A stretch of DNA of 63,681 nucleotides, counting the filler, from an uncultured Methanosarcinales archaeon (GTDB lineage Archaea > Nanobdellota > Nanobdellia > Woesearchaeales > GW2011-AR9), in assembly GCA_964434885.1 (NCBI GenBank). It is 5 parts of 5 records of this genome, joined end to end, with 100 filler letters (N's around TTAATTAATTAA, not from the genome) between each part and the next. Parts side by side here need not be neighbours in the genome. Positions count along the whole stretch, not along the records: positions 26,526 to 39,028 come from CAYSWQ010000026.1; 4 more parts are not named here. One strand, 5' to 3'. Shown in pieces: positions 13,638 through 51,675 of this stretch. Below the pieces are notes generated by a model. The model was not told the origin of the DNA, ran no database searches, and saw only the letters and a list, made by a program, of their open reading frames with translations. A program made the position numbers and the translations under genes. Numbering within the stretch: the first letter of the stretch is position 1; each line of letters opens with the position of its first letter.

Positions 13638-13737
13638 NNNNNNNNNNNNNNNNNNNNNNNNNNNNNNNNNNNNNNNNNNNNTTAATTAATTAANNNNNNN
13701 NNNNNNNNNNNNNNNNNNNNNNNNNNNNNNNNNNNNN
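13638..13737. other. Assembly gap with artificial stop-codon linker
   Basis: 100-nt spacer of Ns containing TTAATTAATTAA. Confidence 0.97.
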
Positions 13738-26425: not shown

Positions 26426-26525
26426 NNNNNNNNNNNNNNNNNNNNNNNNNNNNNNNNNNNNNNNNNNNNTTAATTAATTAANNNNNNNNNNNNNNNNNNN
26501 NNNNNNNNNNNNNNNNNNNNNNNNN
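26426..26525. other. Assembly gap with artificial linker
   Basis: N spacer containing TTAATTAATTAA. Confidence 0.97.
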
Positions 26526-26873
26526 GATTATGAAAAAACCAGTCACATTTTAAAAAATAAATTTGACCTTTACAACTGGATTAACCACCAACCAGATGAA
26601 GTTGCATATTTTCTTACCGAAACTGGATCCAATTGCATTAATTTCTCCGAATTTAAAACTCCAGCTAAATTTCATTTGTGGTTGGGAAAAAAGGGCTTTA
26701 TCATCGGAGTAGAACAACTAGGAAAAACTTTCAACGCTGAAAAAATAAATCAAAACAAAATCAAAGACAATGAAGGAGCCGCTTTTGATTTCTATCGCAA
26801 CTCCCAATCATCAATCTTCTTTGATAACAATCAAGAAACCAGAATTGTTTATCTGGAATGGATTAAGAGGTAA
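26526..26873 (+). CDS. 3' half of a gene whose 5' half is at 51676-51881 (-); possibly a degenerate GHKL/HATPase-like protein
   Basis: The frame starts DYEKTSHILKNK, and the same DYEKTSH ends the 51881 ORF; there is a 23-nt exact reverse-complement overlap. Confidence 0.75.
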   Translation, partial: DYEKTSHILKNKFDLYNWINHQPDEVAYFLTETGSNCINFSEFKTPAKFHLWLGKKGFIIGVEQLGKTFNAEKINQNKIKDNEGAAFDFYRNSQSSIFFDNNQETRIVYLEWIKR

Positions 26874-26877
26874 TAAA

Positions 26878-27144
26878 ATGGAATTAGAAACAATAAGAAA
26901 AGAAATTGATTTTTTAGATAATGAATTGTTAAAAATAATTACTAAGAGAATGGCTTTAATGCCAGAAATAGTAAAAATAAAGAAAGAACTAAATTTACCT
27001 ATTCATCAACCTAAAAGGGAAGCTAGTTTATTGGCTGAAAGAATGGCTGTCGCTAAGAGTTTAGATTTAGATCCAGAGATGGTGAAAAAACTATTTCAAC
27101 TCATAGTTGCCAATGCACGAAAAATCCAAGAAGAAATAATCTAA
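26878..27144 (+). CDS. Monofunctional chorismate mutase (AroQ type)
   Basis: L..IR.EID..D..LL..I..R......I...K...LPI..P.RE pattern; start at ATG 26878. Confidence 0.9.
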   Translation: MELETIRKEIDFLDNELLKIITKRMALMPEIVKIKKELNLPIHQPKREASLLAERMAVAKSLDLDPEMVKKLFQLIVANARKIQEEII

Positions 27145-27218
27145 CAAAGGAAAACAAGCCAACATTTTAATTATCAACAATGGAAAAATATTTAAAAAAA
27201 TAAAACTTTCAACAAAAA

Positions 27219-27287
27219 ATGCAAACAAAAGCTAGAGTATTGGACTTGCAATATAGTACTACTAGCTTGACTTATTTCTGGCAATAA
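27219..27287 (+). CDS. Candidate 22-aa leader peptide (MQTKARVLDLQYSTTSLTYFWQ)
   Basis: ATG lies about 25 nt after a TATA-like box and is followed by several hairpins. Confidence 0.35.
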   Translation: MQTKARVLDLQYSTTSLTYFWQ

Positions 27288-27424
27288 GCCACGAGTTGAT
27301 ATAAATTTCTACTTGATTTCAGAGCTAAACTCCGAGATTAAAGAGTTACGAAAATCAACTTCTGAATTTTAATGGAGCTACAGCATTCAATTTTCTGTAG
27401 CTTCTAAAATATGGAGGTAAAAAA

Positions 27425-27580
27425 ATGAAACAAATAGCTGAAAAGCTACCCATTGCCATAAACAACTTTTATGCGTGTACAATCCCACAATCTGGGAAAG
27501 ATCATGCTGTGGAAGAGAATATCCGCATCAATCGAGCATTACACGAAATAAAAAAAGGGTTAATGGGTAAGGGGGCATAA
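27425..27580 (+). CDS. 51-aa peptide, candidate radical-SAM RiPP precursor
   Basis: Strong SD (GGAGGT, 27414-19). Reads MKQIAEKLPIAINNFYACTIPQSGKDHAVEENIRINRALHEIKKGLMGKGA, directly upstream of the rSAM/SPASM gene. Confidence 0.6.
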   Translation: MKQIAEKLPIAINNFYACTIPQSGKDHAVEENIRINRALHEIKKGLMGKGA

Positions 27581-27590
27581 GCCCCCTTTT
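27569..27590 (+). terminator. GC hairpin with short U-tract between the peptide and rSAM genes
   Basis: AAGGGGGC-ATAA-GCCCCCTTTT. Confidence 0.6.
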
Positions 27591-27597
27591 ATTATAA

Positions 27598-28602
27598 ATG
27601 GAGATTAAAATGAAAATCGAACATAAGAAACCAATTTTTGGAGTGATTGAAGCAACCTTAGCTTGCAATCTAAAATGTATTCATTGTGGATCAAATGCTG
27701 GTTGTCCGAAACCTAATGAACTTTCCACTACAGAAATGAAAGATGTTATTGATCAATTCGCCGACTTGGGTTGTGTGATTATGGCATTCAGCGGTGGCGA
27801 ACCATTGATGCGACCGGACTTTTTTGAGATAGCAGAGCATGTCAAGAAAAAAGGTTTGGAAGTAAGTATTATTTCCAATGGTTCGTTGATTGATGAGAAG
27901 ATGGCTCAGAAATTGGAGAAATTGAAACCGGTGGCTCTTTCGATTAGCCTAGATGGAATTGGTAAAACACATGATACTTTCCGGGGCATCCCTGGATCTT
28001 TTGATCGTTCAGTGCAGGCGTTAAGAACATTAAAAAAAACTACAGTTCCTCATTGCACTATCACTACTGTTACTAAAAGCAACTTTGACCAATTGGAAGA
28101 ACTCTTTAAATTAATGTTGGATTTGGATGTCTGGACTTGGCAGATTCAGATTGGGGCTCCAATCGGACGTTTTCCTAAGAATTTGCTTTTAGATATGAAT
28201 GAAATTCAAGAACTATCTAAATTCATTGCCCAAGCTAGAAAGAAAGCCAAGGGAAAAATCGAAGTTGTTGCGGCAGATTGTATTGGTTATTTTGCTGATA
28301 TTGGCTTACGTGAGATCGATTGGGCTGGTTGTAATGCAGGTTTATGTTTGATGAGTGTTACTTGCGATGGTAATGTCAAAGGTTGTTTGTCAATGCCAGA
28401 TTCAACCATACAAGGAAACGTAAGAAAACGTAAACTCAAAGACATTTGGGAAAATGAATTTGATTTCGCTAGAAACTTCGATCTCAGAAAACTAAAAGGC
28501 AAATGTAATGGTTGTCAAAAAGCTAAAGAATGTCGGGCTGGCTGCAAAGCAATGTCTATGGCTTTTGGAGAGATGTATGAGTTTCCTTTGTGTTTGAGGT
28601 AA
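27598..28602 (+). CDS. Radical SAM/SPASM-domain protein
   Basis: CNLKCIHC, GGEP and SPASM Cys motifs (C.AG...G.V.GC; C..C.....C.AGC...C). Confidence 0.93.
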   Translation: MEIKMKIEHKKPIFGVIEATLACNLKCIHCGSNAGCPKPNELSTTEMKDVIDQFADLGCVIMAFSGGEPLMRPDFFEIAEHVKKKGLEVSIISNGSLIDEKMAQKLEKLKPVALSISLDGIGKTHDTFRGIPGSFDRSVQALRTLKKTTVPHCTITTVTKSNFDQLEELFKLMLDLDVWTWQIQIGAPIGRFPKNLLLDMNEIQELSKFIAQARKKAKGKIEVVAADCIGYFADIGLREIDWAGCNAGLCLMSVTCDGNVKGCLSMPDSTIQGNVRKRKLKDIWENEFDFARNFDLRKLKGKCNGCQKAKECRAGCKAMSMAFGEMYEFPLCLR

Positions 28603-28615
28603 ATTCAAGAATAAA

Positions 28616-29269
28616 TTAAACGTTATTTTTTATTAATTTTTTTAATATTTCAAAACTCTTGGCTGTATCTTCTTCTTTAACCATGAAAGTCATTTCTGTT
28701 AAAGTCGAGACAATATCTATGATGTTGATGTTTTCCCAGTTTAATGCACGAGTAACAATATAAAATAAACCAACTGTTTCAATTGCAGTAATGGGGATGT
28801 TGACAGTAAGACTGCTTAAATTTTTAATTCTTTTTTTGATTTTTGGAAACAATTTAACAATTTTCTTCTCATGTTTTTGATTGGTAATAATCATTACTTC
28901 ATGTAAACCTTGGGTGATCATCAATATATCTCCTTGATTGAAATCAACTAAATCATAGGCGAGTTTAATTTTTTTTTGAATATTGTCTCCTTTGTATACA
29001 GTAATTTCAACCAAATCAGATTTGATGGAAATATCCGTATTGTCATCAAATTTGGTTGTTGCAACAAAACTTTTACTTAGTTTCTCACTTAATCGACGAA
29101 TGGCCATATTGACAGCAGAAAACTTAACTCTTTTTTTCAATTCTTTCTCAATTTCAGGAAGCAATTCTTCTGCTAATGCTGCATTGTTGACAATCCCTTT
29201 ACTCAGAGCTTCTTGTAGGAAAGGCTTCTGTGCAATGATTTTTTCCACCAAATGTGCTACTGTAACCAT
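28616..29269 (-). CDS. HTH plus ACT-domain amino-acid-sensing regulator-like protein
   Basis: N-terminal P.L.EAL..GIVN..ALA...AV.MAIRR; C-terminal ACT (G....V...L....INI..IVST.TE). Confidence 0.8.
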   Translation of the reverse strand: MVTVAHLVEKIIAQKPFLQEALSKGIVNNAALAEELLPEIEKELKKRVKFSAVNMAIRRLSEKLSKSFVATTKFDDNTDISIKSDLVEITVYKGDNIQKKIKLAYDLVDFNQGDILMITQGLHEVMIITNQKHEKKIVKLFPKIKKRIKNLSSLTVNIPITAIETVGLFYIVTRALNWENINIIDIVSTLTEMTFMVKEEDTAKSFEILKKLIKNNV

Positions 29270-29299
29270 TTTACATTTATCTTTTATTTTGTAAATTAT

Positions 29300-29314
29300 T
29301 TTACATTAAGTAAA
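29300..29314. promoter_or_regulatory. Palindromic operator candidate in the divergent promoter
   Basis: TTTAC-ATTAA-GTAAA, with additional TTTAC/GTAAA half-sites across 29270-29340. Confidence 0.5.
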
Positions 29315-29362
29315 TATACTATATAAATTTTTTGGTAAATAAAACAAAATTGTGAGGGAAAA

Positions 29363-29674
29363 ATGAACTTAATAACATTATTTGCAGGAGCCGGACTATT
29401 CGTAACGGCAGGAGATCTCATCTTGGCCCAATGGGCCAGGACTAGCAATTGGTCTTTGTTAGCTATTGGCCTGGTCCTTAATTTATTAGGGATTGTTTGT
29501 TATGCCAACACCCTTCGTTTTACTGGAGTAGGAATAGCTACCGCAATATTCCTTGGGGTAAATATTTTAGCAGTTGCTCTAGGAGGAATGTTATTTTTTC
29601 GAGAGACTCTTTCCTTCAGGACAATTGCAGGATTGGTTTTTTTGTTGACTGCGATAGTGTTGGTAGAGGTGTAA
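29363..29674 (+). CDS. SMR/DMT-family small 4-TM transporter
   Basis: 103 aa, four TM helices, G..FF.E.LS....G..L motif; contains no Lys. Confidence 0.85.
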   Translation: MNLITLFAGAGLFVTAGDLILAQWARTSNWSLLAIGLVLNLLGIVCYANTLRFTGVGIATAIFLGVNILAVALGGMLFFRETLSFRTIAGLVFLLTAIVLVEV

Positions 29675-29712
29675 TCTAGTCAAATAGACTTAAAATGTGG
29701 AGATAACAGAAA

Positions 29713-30780
29713 ATGACAACACAATTAATTGATCAAGTAATAGTTGGAAGTTCCGACCAAGAAATATTATTTAGAGGGTCACCTTTATATTGGGAAACAA
29801 CAAGAAATACTAGTTTAGGAATTAATGAATTAGATTTTCTTTCAATTAATCTTAGACCTATTTGCAATTATCGTTGTGAGTCTTGTTTTTCAGGAATGGG
29901 CACGCCTCAGGAAATAACTGGAACTTTGACTACAGAAGAAATACAAAATTTGATTAGCCAAGCTAGAGAATTAGGGGTTTTATCTATTGAAATTTCTGGA
30001 GAAGGAGAACCTTTGGTAGACCGAAGAAGACTTGAAGAAATAATTCAGTACAATAATCAACTAGGGATCATTACTACTCTTTTTTCTAATGGGTCATTAC
30101 TAGATAGAGAAATTTTAGAATACTTTGCTGATAACAATGTTTCTTTAGCAATTAGTATGGATTATTTTGATCAAAGTGATTACGAACAACATAATTGTCA
30201 AGATGGGTCGTTTGATAACATAATGCGAAATATCAATTTAGCTAGGGAAATTTATTCTCAACATCAAGAAGAAGAAAATGATTATCAAATCAGAAGATTG
30301 GCTATTCATTCAGTGGCTAATGCTAGAAATTTAAATCAGCTTCATTTAATTGCAGAATTTTGTGCTGAAGATATATTTTACAGTATTGCCCCATTAGCTA
30401 ATGTTGGTAACGCAACTGAACATCCTGAATTAATTCAAATGGATCAAGAAAGTATACAACAGATTATTAGTAAGTACTCTGATGGAAATTTAATTTTGTC
30501 AGATTCAGCAAGAGAAGAACACGGTCAAGATTTGTGTGGAACTTTCATTTATGGAATTGGTATTAGGCATGATGGTGAAGTGTTGTTTGATGCTCATGCA
30601 TTTGATACTGCTGGGATAATTGGAAATATTAGGGATTTTGAATTAAGAAATTTAATCCAAAGACAGAGAGAAGTTAGAACTTTATTTTATGAACAGTTTG
30701 CTACTTCTGGATTTTGTCCTTTAAGAGATCCCAACTATCAAACTTTTGTCCAACATCTCATGGGTGGTTTAGATGTGTGA
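29713..30780 (+). CDS. Radical SAM enzyme (Lys-depleted)
   Basis: CNYRCESC, SGEGEPL and SNG motifs; Twitch-like C-terminal Cys; one Lys in 355 aa. Confidence 0.9.
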   Translation: MTTQLIDQVIVGSSDQEILFRGSPLYWETTRNTSLGINELDFLSINLRPICNYRCESCFSGMGTPQEITGTLTTEEIQNLISQARELGVLSIEISGEGEPLVDRRRLEEIIQYNNQLGIITTLFSNGSLLDREILEYFADNNVSLAISMDYFDQSDYEQHNCQDGSFDNIMRNINLAREIYSQHQEEENDYQIRRLAIHSVANARNLNQLHLIAEFCAEDIFYSIAPLANVGNATEHPELIQMDQESIQQIISKYSDGNLILSDSAREEHGQDLCGTFIYGIGIRHDGEVLFDAHAFDTAGIIGNIRDFELRNLIQRQREVRTLFYEQFATSGFCPLRDPNYQTFVQHLMGGLDV

Positions 30781-31630
30781 GCAAACAGAACAAATTGAAA
30801 CAATAATCCAACAACATCTCAATGGAAATTATTCGGATTCATTAACTCGGTTTAGTTATTTGAATGGGGGAGCAGAACAATTTATTAGATTAACTCAAAA
30901 TCCAGATTATACTAGTTATGATCGAGAATTAAATTTAATTCAAAATGTTTTACCCTTTCTTCAAAATTTAGATAGTTTACAAATAATTGATTTTGGGGTG
31001 GGTGATGGTCGAAAGATGAATTTGATAATTCCTAACTTATCGAATGTATCTTATCTTGGCCTAGATATCAGTCCTGCCATGATTGATTTTGCTCGAGATG
31101 ATAATAACTATAGAACCAACTATTTCCTTTATGATTTTAGTGATGTTGCAGAATTACAGAATCTCTTTCATTCATTACCACAACCTCGTTTGATAACAAT
31201 GCTGGGAAACACAATCACTAATGAAATTGATGTGGGAAATTATTTAGAATCTCTGAGAACATTAGATTCAAATTATTTGTTGATTGGTTTGGAATTATTC
31301 CAAGATAATACGGATGAAATAGTCAGAGAATATAGATCTGAAGAGAACTATAATCTCACATTTAAACCATTAGAAATGATTGGAATTCCAAGAAGCCATG
31401 GAGATATAGAAATAAATTATAATTCTGAACAGCAAAGAATTGAAGAATGGTTTGTTTTTAATACCTCTGGACAAATAAAAGATATTCAATATCGATCTGG
31501 AGATCAGATTTTATTATCTGTCACCCATAAACCAACTTTTGAACAAATCCAAGAGATAATTCATAATAGTGGGTGGAATGAAGAAGTAACAATAGTAGAT
31601 GAAAGTTATGCTTTATTTTTACTTTCATAA
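30773..31630 (+). CDS. EgtD-like (Methyltransf_33) amino-acid N-methyltransferase
   Basis: DFGVGDG.K, LDIS..M, LGNT..N, LIG.EL and YN....RIE pattern typical of the EgtD family. Confidence 0.8.
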   Translation: MCEQTEQIETIIQQHLNGNYSDSLTRFSYLNGGAEQFIRLTQNPDYTSYDRELNLIQNVLPFLQNLDSLQIIDFGVGDGRKMNLIIPNLSNVSYLGLDISPAMIDFARDDNNYRTNYFLYDFSDVAELQNLFHSLPQPRLITMLGNTITNEIDVGNYLESLRTLDSNYLLIGLELFQDNTDEIVREYRSEENYNLTFKPLEMIGIPRSHGDIEINYNSEQQRIEEWFVFNTSGQIKDIQYRSGDQILLSVTHKPTFEQIQEIIHNSGWNEEVTIVDESYALFLLS

Positions 31631-31640
31631 AATTCTTGAG

Positions 31641-32093
31641 TCATTTCTCATGAATAACTACCAAAGACTGTGTCTTGTCAATCCCTTTTATTTTTTGTAA
31701 TTTTTTTAACAAGAAATTATCATATGCTTCAACATCTTTAATTCTAACTCTCACTACAATATCTGTTCCTCCAGTAACTACATCAACTTTGGTAATCTCT
31801 GGCAGCCTTTTCAATTCTTGTGCTAGCTGATGTTGATCTTTCTTTAATTCTCTTAATAATTTATAGTCAACAGAAACCATAATAATTACCGAAAAACCTT
31901 TCTCGACTTTTTTATGATCTAGATCAATAGTAAATTTCTTAATAATCTTTTCTTTCTTTAATTTTCTTATCCGATTATGGATAGTAGTTACCGGCAATAA
32001 TGTCTTTTTAGCGATCTGCCGAGTAGTATAATCTCCGTGTTCTTCCAAAACTTCAATGATTTTTTGGTCTTTCTCGTCTAATTTATAGCCCAT
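31641..32093 (-). CDS. Lrp/AsnC-family transcriptional regulator
   Basis: LDEKD.KI...L, IA.......T.HNRI.KL and VTG..D motifs; divergent from the asnA operon. Confidence 0.93.
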   Translation of the reverse strand: MGYKLDEKDQKIIEVLEEHGDYTTRQIAKKTLLPVTTIHNRIRKLKKEKIIKKFTIDLDHKKVEKGFSVIIMVSVDYKLLRELKKDQHQLAQELKRLPEITKVDVVTGGTDIVVRVRIKDVEAYDNFLLKKLQKIKGIDKTQSLVVIHEK

Positions 32094-32095
32094 AA

Positions 32096-32111
32096 TGGAA
32101 CAAATGTTCCA
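32096..32111. promoter_or_regulatory. Palindromic operator candidate (AsnC/Lrp box)
   Basis: TGGAACA-AA-TGTTCCA, with further TTCC-N7/8-GGA(A) sites in the same intergenic region. Confidence 0.5.
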
Positions 32112-32261
32112 AATAGTATATAAATCTTTCTATTTTTTATCATATTTTCCATTATTTTGGAGATATACTTATTAATAAATTCCCCTTTTGGAATAGTATA
32201 ACTAAAAAAGATACGTAACGGATGTCTAAGACATCTAATCGATCTACCGGAGGAAAATAAA

Positions 32262-32762
32262 ATGACAACAGATTTTACAATTTACACAAAAATAACAGCG
32301 CCTGATTGCACCAGTTTAGGATGGGCTATCGGAGATGCAACTGGGGAAAGAGCGGCCAAAACTAGATATTGTGGGGGAGCCACTGGAATTAGAGCGGTAA
32401 TTGTTGATACAAGTAAAGTATCTCCCGAAACTGCAGCAAGCTTTACCCCAAAATCTATTGATCGTATTGAAGGGTTATATTTAGGGGCAGAAAAGATGGT
32501 TTCTGAATTAGATAGACATTTGCCAACTGGTAGTATTATTAGTTTGCGAGGAAGCTGGGCCCCTTGGGAATTAGGAAGTTCTTGGATGCCTGGTTATGGA
32601 GAAAGACCCATAGAAGAAAGGAGATTTCTTGAGGAAGCATTATCTAGTTCTCATTTGGCCGATTTTTTTCCAGTTGGGGCAGCAGATAGGGAAACTAGGA
32701 TTATGGGAATTATCCCAGAATATATCAAAGCCAGTAGCTTAAAATTGGAGGAAATAAAATGA
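32262..32762 (+). CDS. Hypothetical protein, first gene of the asnA operon (no Asn or Gln)
   Basis: GGAGG SD; 166 aa. Confidence 0.75.
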   Translation: MTTDFTIYTKITAPDCTSLGWAIGDATGERAAKTRYCGGATGIRAVIVDTSKVSPETAASFTPKSIDRIEGLYLGAEKMVSELDRHLPTGSIISLRGSWAPWELGSSWMPGYGERPIEERRFLEEALSSSHLADFFPVGAADRETRIMGIIPEYIKASSLKLEEIK

Positions 32763-32875
32763 AATCAGAAATCGATAAAAAATATAAAGAAGAATGTAGC
32801 ACTTTGTTAGAAATCAGAGAAGAGATTGAATCAAAGACAACATCTGGAATGCTGCCTTGGCGTAGTATTTCATAA
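32759..32875 (+). CDS. 38-aa small protein in the asnA operon (no Asn)
   Basis: GGAGG SD and ATGA overlap; MKSEIDKKYKEECSTLLEIREEIESKTTSGMLPWRSIS. Confidence 0.55.
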   Translation: MKSEIDKKYKEECSTLLEIREEIESKTTSGMLPWRSIS

Positions 32876-32893
32876 AAAAGGAGGAATAATAAA

Positions 32894-33922
32894 ATGAAAA
32901 TCTTACCACAAACATACAAACCAAAACTAGATTTTTTCGAAACTGAAAAAGCAATTAAGTTAGTGAAAGATACATTCGAGAAAAAACTAGCGGATAAACT
33001 GAAATTACTAAGAGTTTCTGCTCCTAGGTTCCTAAAAACTGGAAAAGGTTTACAAGATGATTTAGCTGGAACACAAACCCCTGTTGGTTTTAAAGTTGGT
33101 TTTACTGACAAGCGCTTAGAAATAGTTCATAGTTTAGCGAAGTGGAAAAGATTTGCTCTAGGAAAATATGGTTTCAAATTAGGTACTGGTCTGTATACAG
33201 ACATGGATGCTATCAGAAAAGATGAAGAACCTGATGCAATTCATAGTTTGTATGTTGATCAATGGGATTGGGAAAGAGTAATTTCTAAAGAAGAAAGATC
33301 AATTCCTTTTCTCAAAGATATTGTCAAAAAAATTTACGAAGCCTTACTAGAAACAGAGTCAAAAGTAGAAACCATTTTCCCTACACTCTCAGCTAGCCTA
33401 CCAAAAGAAATCACTTTCATTCACTCAGAAGAAGCAGAAGGACTCTATCTAAAATTATCTCCCAAAGAAAGAGAATCTGCTTTAGCCAAAGAATATGGTG
33501 CAGTTTTTCTAATTGGTATTGGTCACCCATTAAAATCTGGAGAACCGCACGATTTAAGAGCAGCTGACTATGATGATTGGTCTACAGAGACTTTAGCAGG
33601 CAAAAGAGGCTTGTGCGGAGATATCTTGGTCTGGGATAAAGTAAGAGAAGAAGTCTTAGAATTGTCTTCGATGGGAATCAGAGTTGACGCCTCAGCATTA
33701 TTAAAACAATTAGAAATGATGGACTTAATCCAAAAAAAAGAATTAGATTTTCACAAAGCAGTAATCGATGATAAAATTCCTTTATCTATTGGTGGGGGAA
33801 TTGGACAATCTCGGATCTGTATGTTTTTGTTACAAAAAGCCCATATTGGAGAAGTACAAAGCTCAGTTTGGCCAAGAGTAGTTGTGGAAGAGTTTGAAAA
33901 GAAGAAGATTCCTTTACTTTAA
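32894..33922 (+). CDS. asnA: Aspartate--ammonia ligase (asparagine synthetase A)
   Basis: EIVHSLAKWKR, HS.YVDQWDWE, HD.RA.DYDDW, ELSSMGIRVD and IGGGIGQSR motifs. Confidence 0.96.
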   Translation: MKILPQTYKPKLDFFETEKAIKLVKDTFEKKLADKLKLLRVSAPRFLKTGKGLQDDLAGTQTPVGFKVGFTDKRLEIVHSLAKWKRFALGKYGFKLGTGLYTDMDAIRKDEEPDAIHSLYVDQWDWERVISKEERSIPFLKDIVKKIYEALLETESKVETIFPTLSASLPKEITFIHSEEAEGLYLKLSPKERESALAKEYGAVFLIGIGHPLKSGEPHDLRAADYDDWSTETLAGKRGLCGDILVWDKVREEVLELSSMGIRVDASALLKQLEMMDLIQKKELDFHKAVIDDKIPLSIGGGIGQSRICMFLLQKAHIGEVQSSVWPRVVVEEFEKKKIPLL

Positions 33923-33959
33923 CCATAACTTTATATATTGTTTTTATTTTATTTATACT

Positions 33960-34229
33960 ATGATGAATGCAAAAGAAGTTGAGAATGAAATTAGTCAAAT
34001 AAAAGTTAGAAATAAAAAAGTTGAAAGAGACAAGGCTTGGGAAACAAGTTGGTCAAGGAAAGTTTTAATAGTGATTTTAACATATATTGTAATCGTCATC
34101 TTTTTTTACTTTGCTGGATTACCAAAACCATTCATCAATTCAATTGTTCCTGCAGTAGCTTTTGTCTTATCCACAGCCACATTACCACTTTTTAAGAAAT
34201 GGTGGTTAAATATAATTTACAGGAAGTAA
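33960..34229 (+). CDS. Small two-TM membrane protein
   Basis: RN.KVE.DKAWETSW.R followed by two TM helices. Confidence 0.75.
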   Translation: MMNAKEVENEISQIKVRNKKVERDKAWETSWSRKVLIVILTYIVIVIFFYFAGLPKPFINSIVPAVAFVLSTATLPLFKKWWLNIIYRK

Positions 34230-34263
34230 AATTTTATAAAAACAAACAAAATAACTAAGAAAA

Positions 34264-35559
34264 ATGAAATTCCAATCAATTCAAGAAGCTATGAAAAAAG
34301 GTTCAGGTCAAGTATCAATTCGAGGTTGGGTACACCGAGAAAGAGGTTCTAACAAATTAAAATTTATTGTTTTAAGAGATGTTTCTAATACCATTCAATG
34401 TGTTTTGAAAAGAGATCAGTTTGAACAAGAATGGGAAGAAATTGATAAAATTCAAATTGAAACTTCTATAGAAATCACAGGAGAAATCAAAAAAGACGAA
34501 AGAGCCCCTACTGGATATGAAATCCAAGTTAAAGAATTTAAAATCGTCGGAAAAAGCGACAATTACCCAATTACTAAAGATCAATCTGTAGAATTTCTAG
34601 CAGACAACCGACATCTATGGTTAAGATCTAGAAAGATGACTAATATCTTAAAAATCAGAAGTACAGTCTTTCAAGCCATTGATGAATATTTTAAGAAAGA
34701 AAACTTTTACGAATACCATTCACCTATTTTTCAATCAGTTCAGTGTGAAGGTGGATCAACATTATTCAATGTACCTTATTACAACAAAAAAGGAGTTTTT
34801 CTAGGACAAACCTGGCAACTATACGCCGAACCAGCCATTTTCGCACTAGAAAAAATTTACACCATTTCTCCTTCTTTCCGAGCTGAAAAAAGCAGAACTA
34901 GTAGACATCTTTCCGAATACTGGCATGCTGAAATGGAAGCCGCCTGGATTACTTTTGATCAATTACAAGATTACGGTGAAGCGTTAGTTAAATATGTATT
35001 CAAAAAAGTACTAGATACCAATCAAAAAGAATTGGAAGAATTAGGCAGAGATCTCAAAAAAATCAAACCAATTATTGAAAAACCATTCAAAAGAATGACT
35101 TACACTGAAGCAATTGAACTTCTAGATAAGAAATGTGATATGAAAGTAGCTTGGGGAAAAGATTTGAGAACTATTGAAGAAGACAAACTTACTAGTCTTT
35201 ACGATGTCCCTATCATTGTTACTAGGTATCCAAAAGAAGTTAAGGCTTTTTACATGACTGAAGATCCAGAAGATCCAAGAGTGGTTTTAGGATTTGATTT
35301 ATTAGCTCCAGAAGGTCACGGAGAAATCATTGGTGCTTCCGATCGAGAACCAGATATAGAAAAAATCAAACAAAGATTGAAAGAAGATAACGAAGATCCT
35401 AAAGAATACACTTTTTACTTAGATACTAGAAAGTATGGGTCTGTCCCTCACGCTGGTTTTGGTCTAGGAGTAGAAAGAGTTATTAAGTGGGTTTGTGGTT
35501 TGGATAACATCAAAGACACTATTCCTTTTCCGAGAACGATGGAGAGATATAGACCTTAA
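34264..35559 (+). CDS. asnS: Asparaginyl-tRNA synthetase
   Basis: OB-fold RGWV, RHLWLRS, EGGSTLF, FRAEKSRTSRHL.EYW..E and PHAGFGLG.ER motifs. Confidence 0.93.
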   Translation: MKFQSIQEAMKKGSGQVSIRGWVHRERGSNKLKFIVLRDVSNTIQCVLKRDQFEQEWEEIDKIQIETSIEITGEIKKDERAPTGYEIQVKEFKIVGKSDNYPITKDQSVEFLADNRHLWLRSRKMTNILKIRSTVFQAIDEYFKKENFYEYHSPIFQSVQCEGGSTLFNVPYYNKKGVFLGQTWQLYAEPAIFALEKIYTISPSFRAEKSRTSRHLSEYWHAEMEAAWITFDQLQDYGEALVKYVFKKVLDTNQKELEELGRDLKKIKPIIEKPFKRMTYTEAIELLDKKCDMKVAWGKDLRTIEEDKLTSLYDVPIIVTRYPKEVKAFYMTEDPEDPRVVLGFDLLAPEGHGEIIGASDREPDIEKIKQRLKEDNEDPKEYTFYLDTRKYGSVPHAGFGLGVERVIKWVCGLDNIKDTIPFPRTMERYRP

Positions 35560-38477
35560 CGAATCAAATAACCTTTATCTTTTCTCAAAAAAGAAACTGC
35601 CAACTCTAATTTAAATTTATTCTCAGCATAAACAGTGTAAAGAATATCTCCTTTTTTCACTTTATCTCCTACTTTGCGATTGATATACATTCCTGCCCCT
35701 TTATCCCCTGGTGCTCCAGCAATTCTGGCAATCTTAGCAATAATTTTGTTGTCAATTCCTTTAATTTTACCTGCCTTATTACTTTTAATTATTCGTTTAA
35801 ACTCCCCTACCTTCACTCTTCTCACTCTTCCTTGGGATTTGATAATCTGGTTCATTTTAACTAATGCTTTACCAGATTCTAATATCTCTGAAGCTTTGGC
35901 AATACCTTGACGTAAAGAGTATTTACCAGTCATTTTTAACAAAGTTCCAGCCATATACAAAGCTTTCTTTTTCAAATCCTCTGGCGCTAAAACATCATCT
36001 TTAAGCACCGCCATTACATCTAAAGATTCTAATAAAGGACCAATTCCAAAACCGATTGGTTGGGTTCCATCAGTAATAATCACTTTTACTTTCATATCTA
36101 ATTTTTCACCAATCTTCTCAAACATTTTCTTCAAACGCTTTGCTTGTTGTCGATTCTTGGCTTTTACTTGCGGACCCATGGGGATGTCAATCAAAACATA
36201 ATTCGCAGAAACAGAATATTTTTTAGCCATTACTGAAGCTAACAATTGTCCTTCCGCATCAATTGACAAAGGATGTTCCACTTCAATAATCTTATCGTCA
36301 GCTGGAGCTAGATTCATTGATCCACCATGAACAACACAAGCCCCAGTTTTTCTAATCACTTCTTTAATTTTATTCTGAGATAATTCTACTTTCGCTAAAC
36401 ATTCCATTGTATCTGCAGTTCCGGCCGGAGAAGTGATTGCCCGAGAACTGGTTTTGGGAACAGTAAAACCAGCAGCTGCTAAAATTGGGATAACTAACAT
36501 GGTTGTTCTATTTCCAGGAACTCCCCCGATACAATTATGGACAGCCATCGGAGCGGTTCCAGCCATGAATTTATTATATCCTTCCACATAAAAATCATAA
36601 ACATGCTTAGTATCTGAGTCAATTGTTCTATTCTCTTTCACGGGTAAAACAGATAGATTTCCATTGACAAATTTTTGAATATCTGGGCTGGGAAAAGCAT
36701 AATAAAAATCTTTAAGCTTGTTTTTTGTAATGAATTTTTGTCTTTTCAAAGTTCTTCTAAATTCCCAACCGACATTTTTATCTTCTACTGGCCCTAATTC
36801 ATTAATTGGAAGTAAATTAACAAAAGATACATTTGCCTTTTCTCTTTTGCCATAGATCTCTCTGGCTTGAGTATAAATATAAAAACTTTCTCCAACAGCA
36901 TATTCACCAGTCGGAAACATTCTTTTCCCTTTGCCTTTGTAAGACAAAGAAACAGAAATTCCCAATAATGAGAGTAAATATTGTAAATCCAAATACAATT
37001 GTTTGGATGCAGTAACATAAATGGCTTCATAACCTCTCCGAACATAACCATCACATTTAAACAATGCTTGCAAAAATTCTAATTGCAACTCTCTGTCTAA
37101 ATCAAAAACAAATGAAGGGATATTTTTTTCTAAAGCATTCTTTCCAGCTTTTATCCTTTCATTAAATAATTTTGATGTTAGCTGTGAATAAACAGTAACT
37201 CTAGTAGCAGTTTCATGAGGAATATTGATTGTTGGGCTAAAACCTAGGACTTTTTCTACACACTTTTTTGCATCTTCAATAAGATCTTTTTCATGAGAAC
37301 CAAAGTTAAGATAAATTCCTTGATCATTTGTAAAACCTTCAGCAATATAATAGGCCAACAACTTGACAAATTCTGAATTGATTTTTATATTTTCAAATCT
37401 TTTATGTCTTCCATTTTCAAACCAGTTTTCATCAATTTCAATCTCTTGCAAAGGAGAGGAATACTTCTCGAAGCCAGTGGGAACAACCACAAAATCATTT
37501 TGATTTAAGTCTTTAGCTGGAATATTTGTTATTTTTCCATTTTTCAGAGTAAACACAGTATGATCGGAAGTAATTTTGATTTTTCTGTTTCCTAACAAAG
37601 TTATTTCTTGTAGTTTTTTTGGAGATTTTACTCTGAAAAAACCGGAAACTGGAGCAAATTTTACCTTGCCATTTCCTTCAAAGGTTAAAACTTGAATATT
37701 TTTTGGATTTTTTTCTAAATACTCAGCTCCATCCTTCCAAGTAACATCCTCTGGGCTATTTTCGAAGAGATTGTCAATTACATGTCCAATATTTCTAATC
37801 TTGACTTTGGAACTATTTCGAATTATAACTGGAACNNNNNNNNNNTCAGCAGTTCCAGCAGGACTAGTAATAGCACGAGAGCTAGTTTTTGGCATTGTTA
37901 ATCCAAGCGAAGCGACAATTGGAATAATAATCATAGAAGTCCTATTGTTAGGTACTCCTCCGATACAGTGTTTGTCTAAAGTTAATCCAGGAAATTTTAA
38001 TTTCTGACCAGTATTTACCATGGCTTTAGTCATGTCGATTACTTCATCCACATGCCAACCATGAACAAAACCCGCAGAAACAAAATAGGTTTTTTCAATA
38101 TCTGTTAAACGATCATGAGTGATATCATCAATAATATGGAAGATATCTTGGTAACTTAATTTTTTACCAAATAATTTTTCTCTAATATGGATAACTGATT
38201 CTGGCTTACCGGTAAATTTTAGAGTGATTGTAGCTCCTCTTTTAATTTTTAATTTATCTAGAACTTCTTCAAACAATCCAATTTTTCCAACCGGTACTGC
38301 TTTTTTACTTTCAGAAATATCTAATACGCAAGTAGTTTCGTGTTTTCCATTCCGAACTACAACCCGGTCTCCAGAACTTAAATCTAAACGTTCTGCATCT
38401 TTAATATTTAGAATGGCGATTAGAATACCTCCACTAGTAATATCCATATCCTTTACTTTAAATTTCATATTCGCCAT
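35556..38477 (-). CDS. AMP phosphorylase (thymidine phosphorylase family) with intein; spans a gap and looks chimeric
   Basis: DKHCIGGVP, PKTSSRAITSPAGTAD, LAPADD and QP.G..IGP.LE motifs; the post-insertion extein segment appears twice. Confidence 0.88.
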   Translation of the reverse strand: MANMKFKVKDMDITSGGILIAILNIKDAERLDLSSGDRVVVRNGKHETTCVLDISESKKAVPVGKIGLFEEVLDKLKIKRGATITLKFTGKPESVIHIREKLFGKKLSYQDIFHIIDDITHDRLTDIEKTYFVSAGFVHGWHVDEVIDMTKAMVNTGQKLKFPGLTLDKHCIGGVPNNRTSMIIIPIVASLGLTMPKTSSRAITSPAGTAXXXXVPVIIRNSSKVKIRNIGHVIDNLFENSPEDVTWKDGAEYLEKNPKNIQVLTFEGNGKVKFAPVSGFFRVKSPKKLQEITLLGNRKIKITSDHTVFTLKNGKITNIPAKDLNQNDFVVVPTGFEKYSSPLQEIEIDENWFENGRHKRFENIKINSEFVKLLAYYIAEGFTNDQGIYLNFGSHEKDLIEDAKKCVEKVLGFSPTINIPHETATRVTVYSQLTSKLFNERIKAGKNALEKNIPSFVFDLDRELQLEFLQALFKCDGYVRRGYEAIYVTASKQLYLDLQYLLSLLGISVSLSYKGKGKRMFPTGEYAVGESFYIYTQAREIYGKREKANVSFVNLLPINELGPVEDKNVGWEFRRTLKRQKFITKNKLKDFYYAFPSPDIQKFVNGNLSVLPVKENRTIDSDTKHVYDFYVEGYNKFMAGTAPMAVHNCIGGVPGNRTTMLVIPILAAAGFTVPKTSSRAITSPAGTADTMECLAKVELSQNKIKEVIRKTGACVVHGGSMNLAPADDKIIEVEHPLSIDAEGQLLASVMAKKYSVSANYVLIDIPMGPQVKAKNRQQAKRLKKMFEKIGEKLDMKVKVIITDGTQPIGFGIGPLLESLDVMAVLKDDVLAPEDLKKKALYMAGTLLKMTGKYSLRQGIAKASEILESGKALVKMNQIIKSQGRVRRVKVGEFKRIIKSNKAGKIKGIDNKIIAKIARIAGAPGDKGAGMYINRKVGDKVKKGDILYTVYAENKFKLELAVSFLRKDKGYLIR
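36534..37835 (-). mobile_element. Intein with LAGLIDADG homing endonuclease, inserted at the KH|CIGG site; N-terminal residues lost in the gap
   Basis: Block B IT.DH.VF, LAYYIAEG and FLQALFKCDG blocks, block F VYDFYV, and terminal HN followed by Cys+1. Confidence 0.92.
37836..37845. other. 10-N scaffold gap within the AMP phosphorylase
   Basis: N run without linker. Confidence 0.95.
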
Positions 38478-38506
38478 CTTTAATTATAAAAAAAGAAAAA
38501 AAATAA

Positions 38507-38881
38507 TTACTTTTTAGCCATCACAAAGACAGACTTCAAAGCAACAATTATGGTAGCAGGAATAAACAAAGTTAGTATTCCTTTTAAGATGTTTAAGATT
38601 GTCGGAGCTAATCCTTTAAAGATTCCTACTTGAATCCCTAAAAAAGATACTAATACCAAAATAGTACTACTGGTTAAAAAAGCACCAACTTCAGAAGCAC
38701 CAACATTTAGTAAACCCACTACAATCCCTAATCCAAAGACAACCCATAGAACCGTTCCTTGGTATTGTCCACTTAAACCTAATCCTAAGATTATTGCTAA
38801 GACCAGACCAACCAAAAAAGACCAACTCCCTAAAAGATTTTGACCTCGAATTAGTTCCCGATTTATTTTTTTCTTAGCCAT
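38507..38881 (-). CDS. Four-TM membrane protein
   Basis: G.W.F..G...A, G..VGLLN...E...FL and PA..IVALK motifs. Confidence 0.8.
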   Translation of the reverse strand: MAKKKINRELIRGQNLLGSWSFLVGLVLAIILGLGLSGQYQGTVLWVVFGLGIVVGLLNVGASEVGAFLTSSTILVLVSFLGIQVGIFKGLAPTILNILKGILTLFIPATIIVALKSVFVMAKK

Positions 38882-38980
38882 GAAATATCACCTCTTTTAA
38901 TTAAGTAAATTTTTTCCATTTATAATGATTTTGTTTTGTTTGGAAAAGTTTTATAAATAATCTCTAGATTTAAGATATAT

Positions 38981-39028
38981 CCCTTCATAGTTCAGTGGCT
39001 AGAACGCCCGGCTGTAGAAACTTTTTGG
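38981..39028 (+). tRNA. tRNA-Tyr(GUA), intron-containing; truncated by gap
   Basis: CCCTTCATAGTTCAGTGGCTAGAACG-CCCGG-CT GTA G then intron start; C1 is typical of archaeal tRNA-Tyr. Confidence 0.8.
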
Positions 39029-39128
39029 NNNNNNNNNNNNNNNNNNNNNNNNNNNNNNNNNNNNNNNNNNNNTTAATTAATTAANNNNNNNNNNNNNNNN
39101 NNNNNNNNNNNNNNNNNNNNNNNNNNNN
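39029..39128. other. Assembly gap with artificial linker
   Basis: N spacer containing TTAATTAATTAA. Confidence 0.97.
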
Positions 39129-51575: not shown

Positions 51576-51675
51576 NNNNNNNNNNNNNNNNNNNNNNNNN
51601 NNNNNNNNNNNNNNNNNNNTTAATTAATTAANNNNNNNNNNNNNNNNNNNNNNNNNNNNNNNNNNNNNNNNNNNN
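51576..51675. other. Assembly gap with artificial linker
   Basis: N spacer containing TTAATTAATTAA. Confidence 0.97.

Follow-up and report, generated by a model that had tools for sequence, protein, structure and literature searches.

Organization of the locus

The window (the whole stretch of DNA analyzed here, 63.7 kb, from the metagenome-assembled genome (MAG) GCA_964434885.1) harbors three co-oriented genes encoding a membrane protein resembling the small multidrug resistance (SMR) family, a radical S-adenosylmethionine (radical SAM) enzyme and an EgtD-like methyltransferase (MT). These genes form a tight operon on the plus strand, in which the start of the MT gene overlaps the end of the radical SAM gene by 8 nt, and they diverge from the gene for a 217-aa putative regulator possessing tandem ACT domains (Table 1). 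The three encoded proteins together contain 5 lysine residues in 743 aa, i.e., none in the SMR-like protein, one in the radical SAM enzyme (K254, codon AAG) and four in the MT (K81, K198, K236 and K253). These exact counts agree with those of the original prediction, which had been made from the sequence alone.

Table 1. Features of the operon and its immediate surroundings (positions in the window).
Feature	Position	Strand	Description
Regulator with tandem ACT	28616..29269	-	217 aa, 12.9 % Lys, four-helix N-terminal domain
Divergent control region	29270..29362		93 bp, palindromes, TATA-like and Shine-Dalgarno-like elements
SMR/EamA-like membrane protein	29363..29674	+	103 aa, 0 Lys, four helices
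Radical SAM enzyme	29713..30780	+	355 aa, 1 Lys
EgtD-like methyltransferase (MT; Methyltransf_33)	30773..31630	+	285 aa, 4 Lys
Lrp/AsnC-family regulator	31641..32093	-	150 aa, 17.3 % Lys, 1.3 % Asn

Lysine depletion in the operon is specific to the reading frame

For a genome-wide comparison, a crude in-house set of 1039 open reading frames (ORFs) of at least 80 aa was used, whose median lysine content is 10.7 %. The claim that nearly all other proteins of the window, the divergent regulator included, are rich in lysine holds. Of the ORFs that reach 150 aa (n = 784), the radical SAM enzyme is the poorest in lysine and the MT the third poorest, and the binomial probabilities at the genome lysine frequency of 0.105 are 3.5e-16 for the radical SAM enzyme, 1.1e-9 for the MT and 1.1e-5 for the SMR-like protein. 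All three genes are genome-wide outliers, as had been proposed. Ranked among 17,780 protein-by-residue tests, the two enzymes come 3rd and 10th, mostly behind large or signal-peptide-bearing proteins. Small hydrophobic ORFs (n = 36) have a median lysine content of 5.9 %, and the SMR-like protein is the sole lysine-free one among the 23 of them starting with ATG; taken alone, its depletion is a weaker case than that of both enzymes.

The depletion is strictly in-frame. AAA and AAG account for 1 of 355 codons (0.3 %) of the radical SAM gene and for 4 of 285 (1.4 %) of the MT gene, and in the other two frames for 9.0 and 5.6 % (radical SAM) and 7.7 and 5.3 % (MT); these off-frame figures lie near the genome values, which are 10.4, 12.3 and 7.7 % over the three frames. 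The G+C content at third codon positions (GC3) of the operon genes is host-like (17-19 %), and their arginine codons are mainly AGA, the same as in the rest of the genome. The loss of lysine codons in one frame only, together with host-like GC3 and arginine codons, excludes both base composition and recent transfer as its cause and points to the protein or to decoding as the level at which the depletion acts. By these measures, the operon genes fit completely into this AT-rich genome.

The longest lysine-free run comprises 253 of 355 residues in the radical SAM enzyme, 103 of 103 in the SMR-like protein and 116 of 285 in the MT. The criteria quoted in a review on lysine deserts (PMC13696103) ask for a continuous lysine-free stretch that either reaches 150 residues or makes up 50 % or more of the protein, a definition that covers the radical SAM enzyme and the SMR-like protein and does not cover the MT. 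The operon proteins of the window are also strongly acidic (net charge -31 and -26).

Note that lysine depletion in this genome is greatest in ORFs for large proteins of surface type, located outside the window. The ORF with the second lowest lysine content (among those of at least 150 aa) encodes a secreted YadA-head repeat protein whose start resembles a signal peptide and which has 3 lysines in 608 aa (G000:C8:9043-10869, plus strand), and a 1483-aa ORF contains 53 lysines (G000:C1:4055-8506, plus strand).

Conservation of the trait in homologous loci

The closest homologues of the radical SAM enzyme (P0002-P0036, 77-40 % identity) are lysine-poor as well: 29 of the 35 contain at most 1.5 % lysine, and 13 contain none. 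In the next group (P0037-P0106), 32 of 70 proteins have 9-16 % lysine. The MT homologues contain at most 4.1 % lysine in 20 of 21 cases; the source names attached to the homologues of both enzymes include Woesearchaeota and Nanoarchaeota, which, like the archaeal-type UMP kinase of the genome, indicates a DPANN archaeon. In a FastTree phylogeny of 103 radical SAM sequences, the lysine-poor ones fall into one clade of 45 members (support 95), a few of which are back at 8-10 % lysine. The sequences are of unequal composition, and grouping by composition is possible, but the clade is independently supported by shared synteny.

The operon architecture recurs among 53 metagenome loci. Both the radical SAM and the MT genes are present in 11 loci, namely 10 metagenome loci and the window's own (L002). 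Where flank data exist for these MT-linked loci, the lysine content of the radical SAM enzyme is below half of the flank median in 9 of 10 and below one fifth of it in 6 of 10, the flanking genes on these contigs having 7-13 % lysine (7-14 % over all loci). Across the 11 loci, the lysine contents of the radical SAM enzyme and the MT rise and fall together (Spearman 0.85, with a P value that overstates the significance because these loci are related), which points to an operon-wide pressure rather than to one acting on each protein separately. At 28 alignment columns that are mostly lysine in lysine-rich relatives, the lysine-poor clade carries arginine in 25 %, glutamate in 20 %, glutamine in 10 % and aspartate in 9 % of cases, and arginine is raised to 6-11 % in this clade, in AT-rich hosts. 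Its net charge spans -1 to -31 while lysine stays near zero throughout; the conserved property is thus the absence of lysine rather than charge or acidity.

Not all orthologues share the trait. In L027 (27 % GC; L027:4217-6109), the regulator, the radical SAM enzyme and the MT contain 10-12 % lysine, L019 and L022 are intermediate, and in a library-wide search with the MT profile 9 of the 21 closest representatives have 7-13 % lysine. In remote radical SAM relatives from genomes of DPANN archaea and of the Candidate Phyla Radiation (CPR), the lysine content ranges from that of the flanks to about half of it. The suggestion that homologous operons would be lysine-poor and linked to the same regulator family is upheld; of the refuting conditions named in the original prediction, that of homologues with normal lysine content holds in part. 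The existence of the lysine-normal orthologues shows that the trait depends on lineage rather than on enzyme chemistry. In the MT gene of L027, a frameshift within an A-rich run breaks the reading frame, owing to decay or a sequencing error.

The operon is rare, with close copies in 2 of ~800 genomes sampled. In the phylum sample, a radical SAM match at E <= 1e-20 was obtained in 12 of 401 genomes, and only the one in G379 is close (49 % identity). In the order sample, the MT profile matched in 6 of 401 genomes; apart from that in the window's own genome (G000), these matches are general EgtD-like proteins (113-170 bits compared to 433). One of these five, in G321, is flagged as unpublished and is used in this tally only. 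A single-protein scan of the genome contigs with the radical SAM enzyme retrieved one weak, unrelated locus (25 % identity), and no relative of the operon was found in the viral contigs searched. The operon belongs to the accessory genes of DPANN archaea, in which it is rare, and it has remote counterparts among CPR bacteria. The stretch is present in sequencing runs labelled as marine or seawater metagenome, not brine.

Some loci carry additional genes. In L056 (L056:346-825, plus strand) and L059 (L059:362-826, plus strand), the SMR and radical SAM genes are separated by an additional ORF of 154-159 aa; it encodes 0-1 lysine and 18 arginines and has neither a Pfam match nor a homologue in the other loci or in G000. 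The extra ORFs beside the operon in L003, L015, L017, L035/37 and L056/59 have no family in common. In L029, a Fic/DOC-domain gene (L029:8999-9430, plus strand) directly follows a remote radical SAM homologue on a contig of 53 % GC.

Properties of the encoded enzymes and of the membrane protein

The MT belongs to the family PF10017 (67.1 bits at a threshold of 23; residues 25-278 align with profile positions 18-294 of 304). It is not EgtD proper, as the egtD equivalog model TIGR03438 gives 51.3 bits at a cut-off of 290.9. A single-sequence search of the PDB with the MT yielded no match, whereas its family profile aligns over nearly the full length with the EgtD structures 7scf and 4pim (E ~1e-11). 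As described in the available part of PMC8593015, EgtD binds the α-carboxylate and α-amino groups of its substrate by Tyr56, Tyr206, Ser284 and Asn166, with Tyr39 contacting the α-carbon. The MT possesses a nearly invariant Y46 in place of Tyr56 and the invariant Y187, T251 and N150 in place of Tyr206, Ser284 and Asn166; the equivalents of EgtD Tyr39, Phe47 and Thr163 are kept as well. The residues of an EgtD-like amino-acid N-α-methyltransferase are thus all present. Two of the four lysines, K81 and K253, occupy nearly invariant family positions. The side-chain pocket differs: Glu282 of the imidazole pocket of EgtD is replaced by the invariant Ser249, and the invariant E151, E186 and E225 of the MT correspond to EgtD Leu167, Ala205 and Met252, at or next to pocket positions (Met252 presumably lines the pocket). 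From these residues we infer that the MT is an amino-acid N-α-methyltransferase with an acidic side-chain pocket unlike that of EgtD, perhaps suited to a basic side chain.

The assignment of the radical SAM enzyme to its superfamily follows from PF04055 (57.7 bits at a threshold of 29.5); none of the curated NCBIfam models was reached. The CX3CX2C motif (C51/C55/C58) is invariant in all 26 aligned clade sequences. Beyond this core motif, the only invariant cysteines of the alignment are C275 and C335 in the C-terminal extension, and no lysine is invariant. The structural model has a mean predicted local distance difference test score (pLDDT) of 88.3. The SPASM domain (PF13186) is reported for the neighboring radical SAM protein (27598-28602) and not for this one, which places the enzyme outside the SPASM proteins; a reduced twitch-like C-terminal domain may be present. 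No gene for a precursor peptide is evident in the operon.

The SMR-like protein scores slightly above the cut-offs of the Pfam families EamA (30.2 bits, cut-off 28.2) and Multi_Drug_Res (PF00893; 23.9 bits, cut-off 23.7) and far below those of the NCBIfam SMR models. In the PDB it matches Gdx-Clo (residues 35-99 to 34-98) and EmrE (40-101 to 40-101) weakly (E 0.013-0.05). T15, G17 and D18 are invariant in five of five homologues, Asp18 being embedded in the membrane in helix 1. SMR relatives transport cationic substrates, and export of a cation would fit these features.

Regulator and control region

With Pfam, the 217-aa regulator gives DUF7523 at 24.4, ACT_9 at 20.2 and ACT_7 at 17.3 bits, all below the cut-off of 27. 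Its AlphaFold model (pLDDT 87.7) is more informative. The N-terminal 67 residues form four helices and are presumed to bind DNA (DUF7523-like domain). Residues ~72-217 match the regulatory domains of aspartate kinases in Foldseek (E ~2e-8, TMt 0.65-0.71), and VIA-align gives Z scores of 14.3-11.3 with nine aspartokinase or stand-alone tandem-ACT entries, the best being 5yei_C (Z 14.3, root-mean-square deviation 2.8 over 138 residues). The Atlas clusters holding the regulator are those of DUF7523/ACT_7. In the model, the C-terminal domain is thus an aspartokinase-type tandem ACT fold, and the ACT domain proposed in the original prediction is borne out by fold at sequence scores below threshold. 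The identity to the tandem-ACT entries is only 10-17 %, so that ligand specificity cannot be read from it. No characterized member of the DUF7523 family was found.

The TTTAC/GTAAA palindromes described earlier between the divergent genes could be located precisely. An outer inverted repeat, TTTAC-N16-GTAAA, lies at 29270-29295; a 15-bp palindrome, TTTACATTAAGTAAA, lies at 29300-29314, five bases before the putative TATA-like element TATATAAA (29320-29327), and a Shine-Dalgarno-like GTGAGGG is present at 29352-29358. The 5-5-5 palindrome, followed directly by TATA(T/C), occurs at the same position in 7 of 11 regulator-linked intergenic regions (the window, L003, L018, L019, L021, L027 with an imperfect copy, and L053, which is near-identical to L018), and the regulators of these loci, four of which were aligned, are 41-72 % identical to that of the window. 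The other four regulator-linked loci (L020, L035, L037, L039) possess different palindromes. The loose pattern TTWAC-N5-GTWAA is no more frequent genome-wide than chance would give (16 observed, ~20 expected), so the weight of the palindrome comes only from its conservation in orthologous promoters. This conservation supports DNA binding by the regulator.

In the closest relatives of the operon (L015-L017), the divergent gene encodes an Lrp/AsnC protein instead; for the one compared (L015), the closest solved relative is FL11/PH1519 (E 2e-13). FL11 responds to lysine and arginine, according to the part of the review PMC2995911 that treats it. Two unrelated amino-acid-sensor folds, of the ACT and the Lrp/AsnC type, therefore appear to control the lysine-poor operons. 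In L024, L029, L034, L047 and L050, a remote radical SAM homologue is accompanied by a divergent TrmB-family regulator of ~250 aa, and further remote loci have a divergent gene of like size. Across its family, the radical SAM enzyme appears to be individually regulated.

Lysine supply and the precedent of asnA

Searches of this genome (1.07 Mb in 66 contigs, completeness 92 %) detected no member of the DapA, Asd or HMGL-like families, and DapA was not found in G379 either. The only AA_kinase of the genome is the archaeal UMP kinase, and its pyridoxal phosphate-dependent decarboxylase scores far below the lysA cut-off. As no lysine pathway is seen, the organism probably imports lysine.

On the same contig, a cognate amino acid has been removed from another gene. 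AsnA (32894-33922, plus strand) contains no asparagine in 342 aa, the genome median being 5.0 %, which confirms the asparagine bias claimed for the adjacent asnA. The ORF 5' of it (32262-32762, plus strand; 166 aa, no Pfam or NCBIfam match) contains none either, and the AsnC-like regulator (31641-32093, minus strand) has 2 in 150 aa. AsnA of 10 family genomes, the window's own included, has 0-6 asparagines. The lineage thus purges the cognate amino acid from a gene that is needed in shortage. Asparagine shows the strongest cognate bias reported in the available part of a study that surveyed as many as 1,790 genomes (lysine: 1,470; PMC4209129), and the asnA region is an extreme, conserved form of it.

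Another single-amino-acid eradication may be represented by a 207-aa ORF outside the window (G000:C8:16927-17550, minus strand), which has no Pfam match and contains no valine (13 expected).

Neighboring genes

The operon is located on a 12.5-kb contig (window positions 26526-39028). The window consists of five MAG contigs joined by N spacers (13638-13737, 26426-26525, 39029-39128 and 51576-51675) and is not one molecule, so gene neighborhoods spanning the spacers are not real. The order on the operon contig is chorismate mutase, a 51-aa ORF, a radical SAM/SPASM gene, the 217-aa minus-strand gene, the 93-bp gap and the operon, followed by a convergent Lrp/AsnC gene, the 166-aa ORF, asnA and asnS. 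The Lrp/AsnC gene, convergent to the MT gene and divergent from the 166-aa ORF and asnA, is probably a member of the asnA unit; its product matches AsnC_trans_reg (64.6 bits) and HTH_24 (44.6 bits) of Pfam, as well as AsnC (1.8e-17) and LysM (1.5e-16) of NCBIfam, neither of the latter reaching the cut-off.

The 51-aa ORF (27425-27580, plus strand) lies immediately 5' of the radical SAM/SPASM gene (27598-28602, plus strand), which in NCBIfam comes closest to peptide maturases and to enzymes of the AhbD/NirJ type, none of them reaching the cut-off. The two genes possibly form a peptide-maturase pair. A radical SAM/SPASM gene also adjoins the operon-type radical SAM gene in L005 and is found nearby in L051.

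Proposed function of the operon

The observation on which the original prediction was based is confirmed and strengthened, and its interpretation is plausible but unproven. We tentatively favor, at somewhat less than even confidence, an operon proof against lysine scarcity that is controlled by an amino-acid sensor and serves to make and export an N-methylated cationic amino-acid derivative. Selection would have purged the lysine codons from all three reading frames of the operon, and the resulting proteins could be completed when charged tRNA-Lys is scarce, in an organism apparently unable to make lysine. The divergent sensor, with its helical DNA-binding domain and tandem ACT, would set transcription via the 5-5-5 palindrome abutting the TATA-like box, a role that an Lrp/AsnC-type sensor would fill in the closest relatives. 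The MT would act on an amino acid that probably carries a basic side chain and methylate its α-amino group. The same compound, or a precursor of it, would be modified by the radical SAM enzyme, and the cationic product would be exported by the SMR-like protein. That the sensed ligand is lysine and that the operon is induced by lysine shortage are inferred, as are the substrate, the product and the direction of transport. The reading draws on the missing lysine pathway, the sensor-type regulators, the presence of the trait in all three genes with its co-variation, and the asnA precedent.

Several points weigh against it. The enzymes have no known link to lysine metabolism, and an N-methyltransferase with a radical SAM enzyme makes no obvious route to lysine. 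Aspartokinase ACT domains bind threonine too, and CASTOR proteins bind arginine. A lysyl-tRNA synthetase, whose lysine content would have been a second indicator, was not found in the MAG: class I gave none, and the class II matches above the cut-off are AspRS (by motif reading) and the AsnS of the window. None of the sequencing runs listed as containing the stretch is an RNA run. The L027 operon and the lysine-normal MT representatives show that related systems do with ordinary lysine contents. The absence of lysine over ~350 aa is more typical of lysine deserts, where a single lysine is harmful, than of the modest published cognate biases. Finally, canonical lysine biosynthesis shows no low cognate bias in the available part of the survey (median +2.3; PMC4209129).

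A bolder version of the scarcity reading, which we regard as quite improbable, may be worth stating. A lysine-auxotrophic episymbiont would use this lysine-free emergency operon to export a quaternary-ammonium derivative that restores the lysine supply via the host or the community, either as a demand signal or as an antimetabolite of the host's feedback control of lysine; alternatively, the operon would constitute an unrecognized radical SAM route to lysine.

Alternative explanations

Among the alternatives, lysine deserts fare best, although we still consider this explanation unlikely. Lysine would be avoided so that a lysine-directed tag (SAMP/ubiquitin-like, with the proteasome) or another lysine modification cannot inactivate or degrade the proteins. 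The presence of 0-1 lysine over ~350 aa corresponds to the all-or-none pattern of lysine-desert proteins, the radical SAM enzyme with its 253-residue lysine-free run and the SMR-like protein fall within the published definition (PMC13696103, as far as the available part goes), and lysine is often replaced by arginine, which keeps the charge. The genome moreover has genes for an E1-like ThiF protein and for both subunits of the 20S proteasome, so that lysine-directed tagging is conceivable. There is, however, no reason for protecting this operon alone among ~1000 genes, with the regulator and the neighbors being lysine-rich; the four-helix membrane protein has the trait too, and some orthologues have lost it.

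It is improbable that the proteins protect themselves in this way, i.e., that an amine-reactive intermediate or product is made and that the enzymes and the exporter, which meet it at a high local concentration, have lost their lysines. Only the three compound-handling proteins are affected, as this idea would have it, and radical SAM chemistry can yield reactive species. The lysine-normal operons of the same architecture (L027 and the MT representatives mentioned above) argue, however, that the chemistry itself does not call for the purge, which weakens this explanation. Furthermore, the purge spans whole proteins and not only surfaces near the active site, and two conserved lysines of the MT, probably active-site ones, have been kept.

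Still less probable is expression of the operon during an attack on lysine decoding, in which anticodon nucleases or ribosome-dependent mRNA interferases target tRNA-Lys or in-frame lysine codons, or in which the product of the operon itself blocks lysine charging. The strictly in-frame depletion, affecting AAA and AAG alike, fits selection at the level of decoding, but the regulators are of the metabolite-sensor type, no relatives were found in the viral contigs searched, and no such nuclease was seen near the operon, none having been searched for.

Physicochemical adaptation (acidity for a cationic substrate, solubility, salt) or the legacy of a low-lysine, halophile-like donor, suggested by the strongly acidic proteins of the window, is largely refuted by the frame-specific codons and the lysine-rich flanks (7-14 % in every locus), as well as by the variable charge of the clade at near-zero lysine, the 6-11 % arginine in AT-rich hosts, the host-like GC3 and arginine codons and the marine rather than brine origin of the runs, and has hardly any probability left. 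A low-lysine or halophile-like donor, taken by itself, is excluded by the frame specificity, the codon usage and the flanks.

Implications

If the operon is indeed proof against lysine scarcity, it would be the clearest example to date of lysine being adaptively eliminated from an entire regulated operon, achieved in an AT-rich host in which mutation pushes hard towards lysine codons. Shortage of amino acids would then be a force that shapes which genes genome-reduced symbionts carry, and the amino-acid make-up of an accessory operon could then mark the limiting nutrient of an uncultured organism. It would also widen the discussion of lysine deserts past ubiquitin- and Pup-linked explanations and GC bias. 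Among the papers listed by literature searches on lysine-depleted prokaryotic proteins, cognate bias and clusters of radical SAM and EgtD genes, none describes this operon or any lysine-free starvation operon, and no characterized member was found of the pair of radical SAM enzyme and EgtD-like MT or of the regulator family combining DUF7523 with an aspartokinase-type tandem ACT.

Comparison with known systems

The MT shares its fold family with EgtD, the histidine N-α-trimethyltransferase of ergothioneine biosynthesis. Unlike ergothioneine systems, the operon contains no EgtB, EgtC, EgtE or EanB partner; the partner of the MT is the radical SAM enzyme. The latter has its best PDB matches (E 1e-12 to 1e-9) in SkfB, EpeE/YydG, CteB, MoaA, SuiB and viperin. 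It shares the radical SAM core, the CX3CX2C motif and a C-terminal extension with twitch/SPASM-type enzymes, but the template-modelling scores are only 0.5-0.63 and the identity is 15-20 %. The SMR-like protein resembles EmrE and Gdx in its length (~105 aa), its four helices and the conserved carboxylate of helix 1, which is Asp instead of the Glu of EmrE; it is in register with EmrE and offset by one residue from Gdx-Clo, the match scores being marginal. The regulator has the tandem ACT fold of aspartate kinases with a small helical domain and no kinase, and it shares this fold with CASTOR2 and CASTOR1 as well (Z 8.6 and 7.7).

A similar avoidance of a scarce nutrient is known from sulfur-starved cyanobacteria, which make sulfur-depleted phycobiliproteins. 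Lysine deserts have long conserved lysine-free stretches and arginine substitutions in common with the operon. The review PMC13696103 reports them from ubiquitin or Pup systems, from toxins, and from GC-rich Actinobacteria with their phages; the terms "starvation," "auxotroph" and "biosynthe" do not occur in it, and "archaea" occurs a single time. The host of the operon is AT-rich and lysine-rich, which removes the explanation of lysine deserts by GC bias. With cognate bias, as far as the available part of PMC4209129 describes it, the operon would share the principle that proteins needed in shortage avoid the scarce nutrient; it differs in being far more extreme than the published medians and in consisting of genes without a known role in lysine supply.

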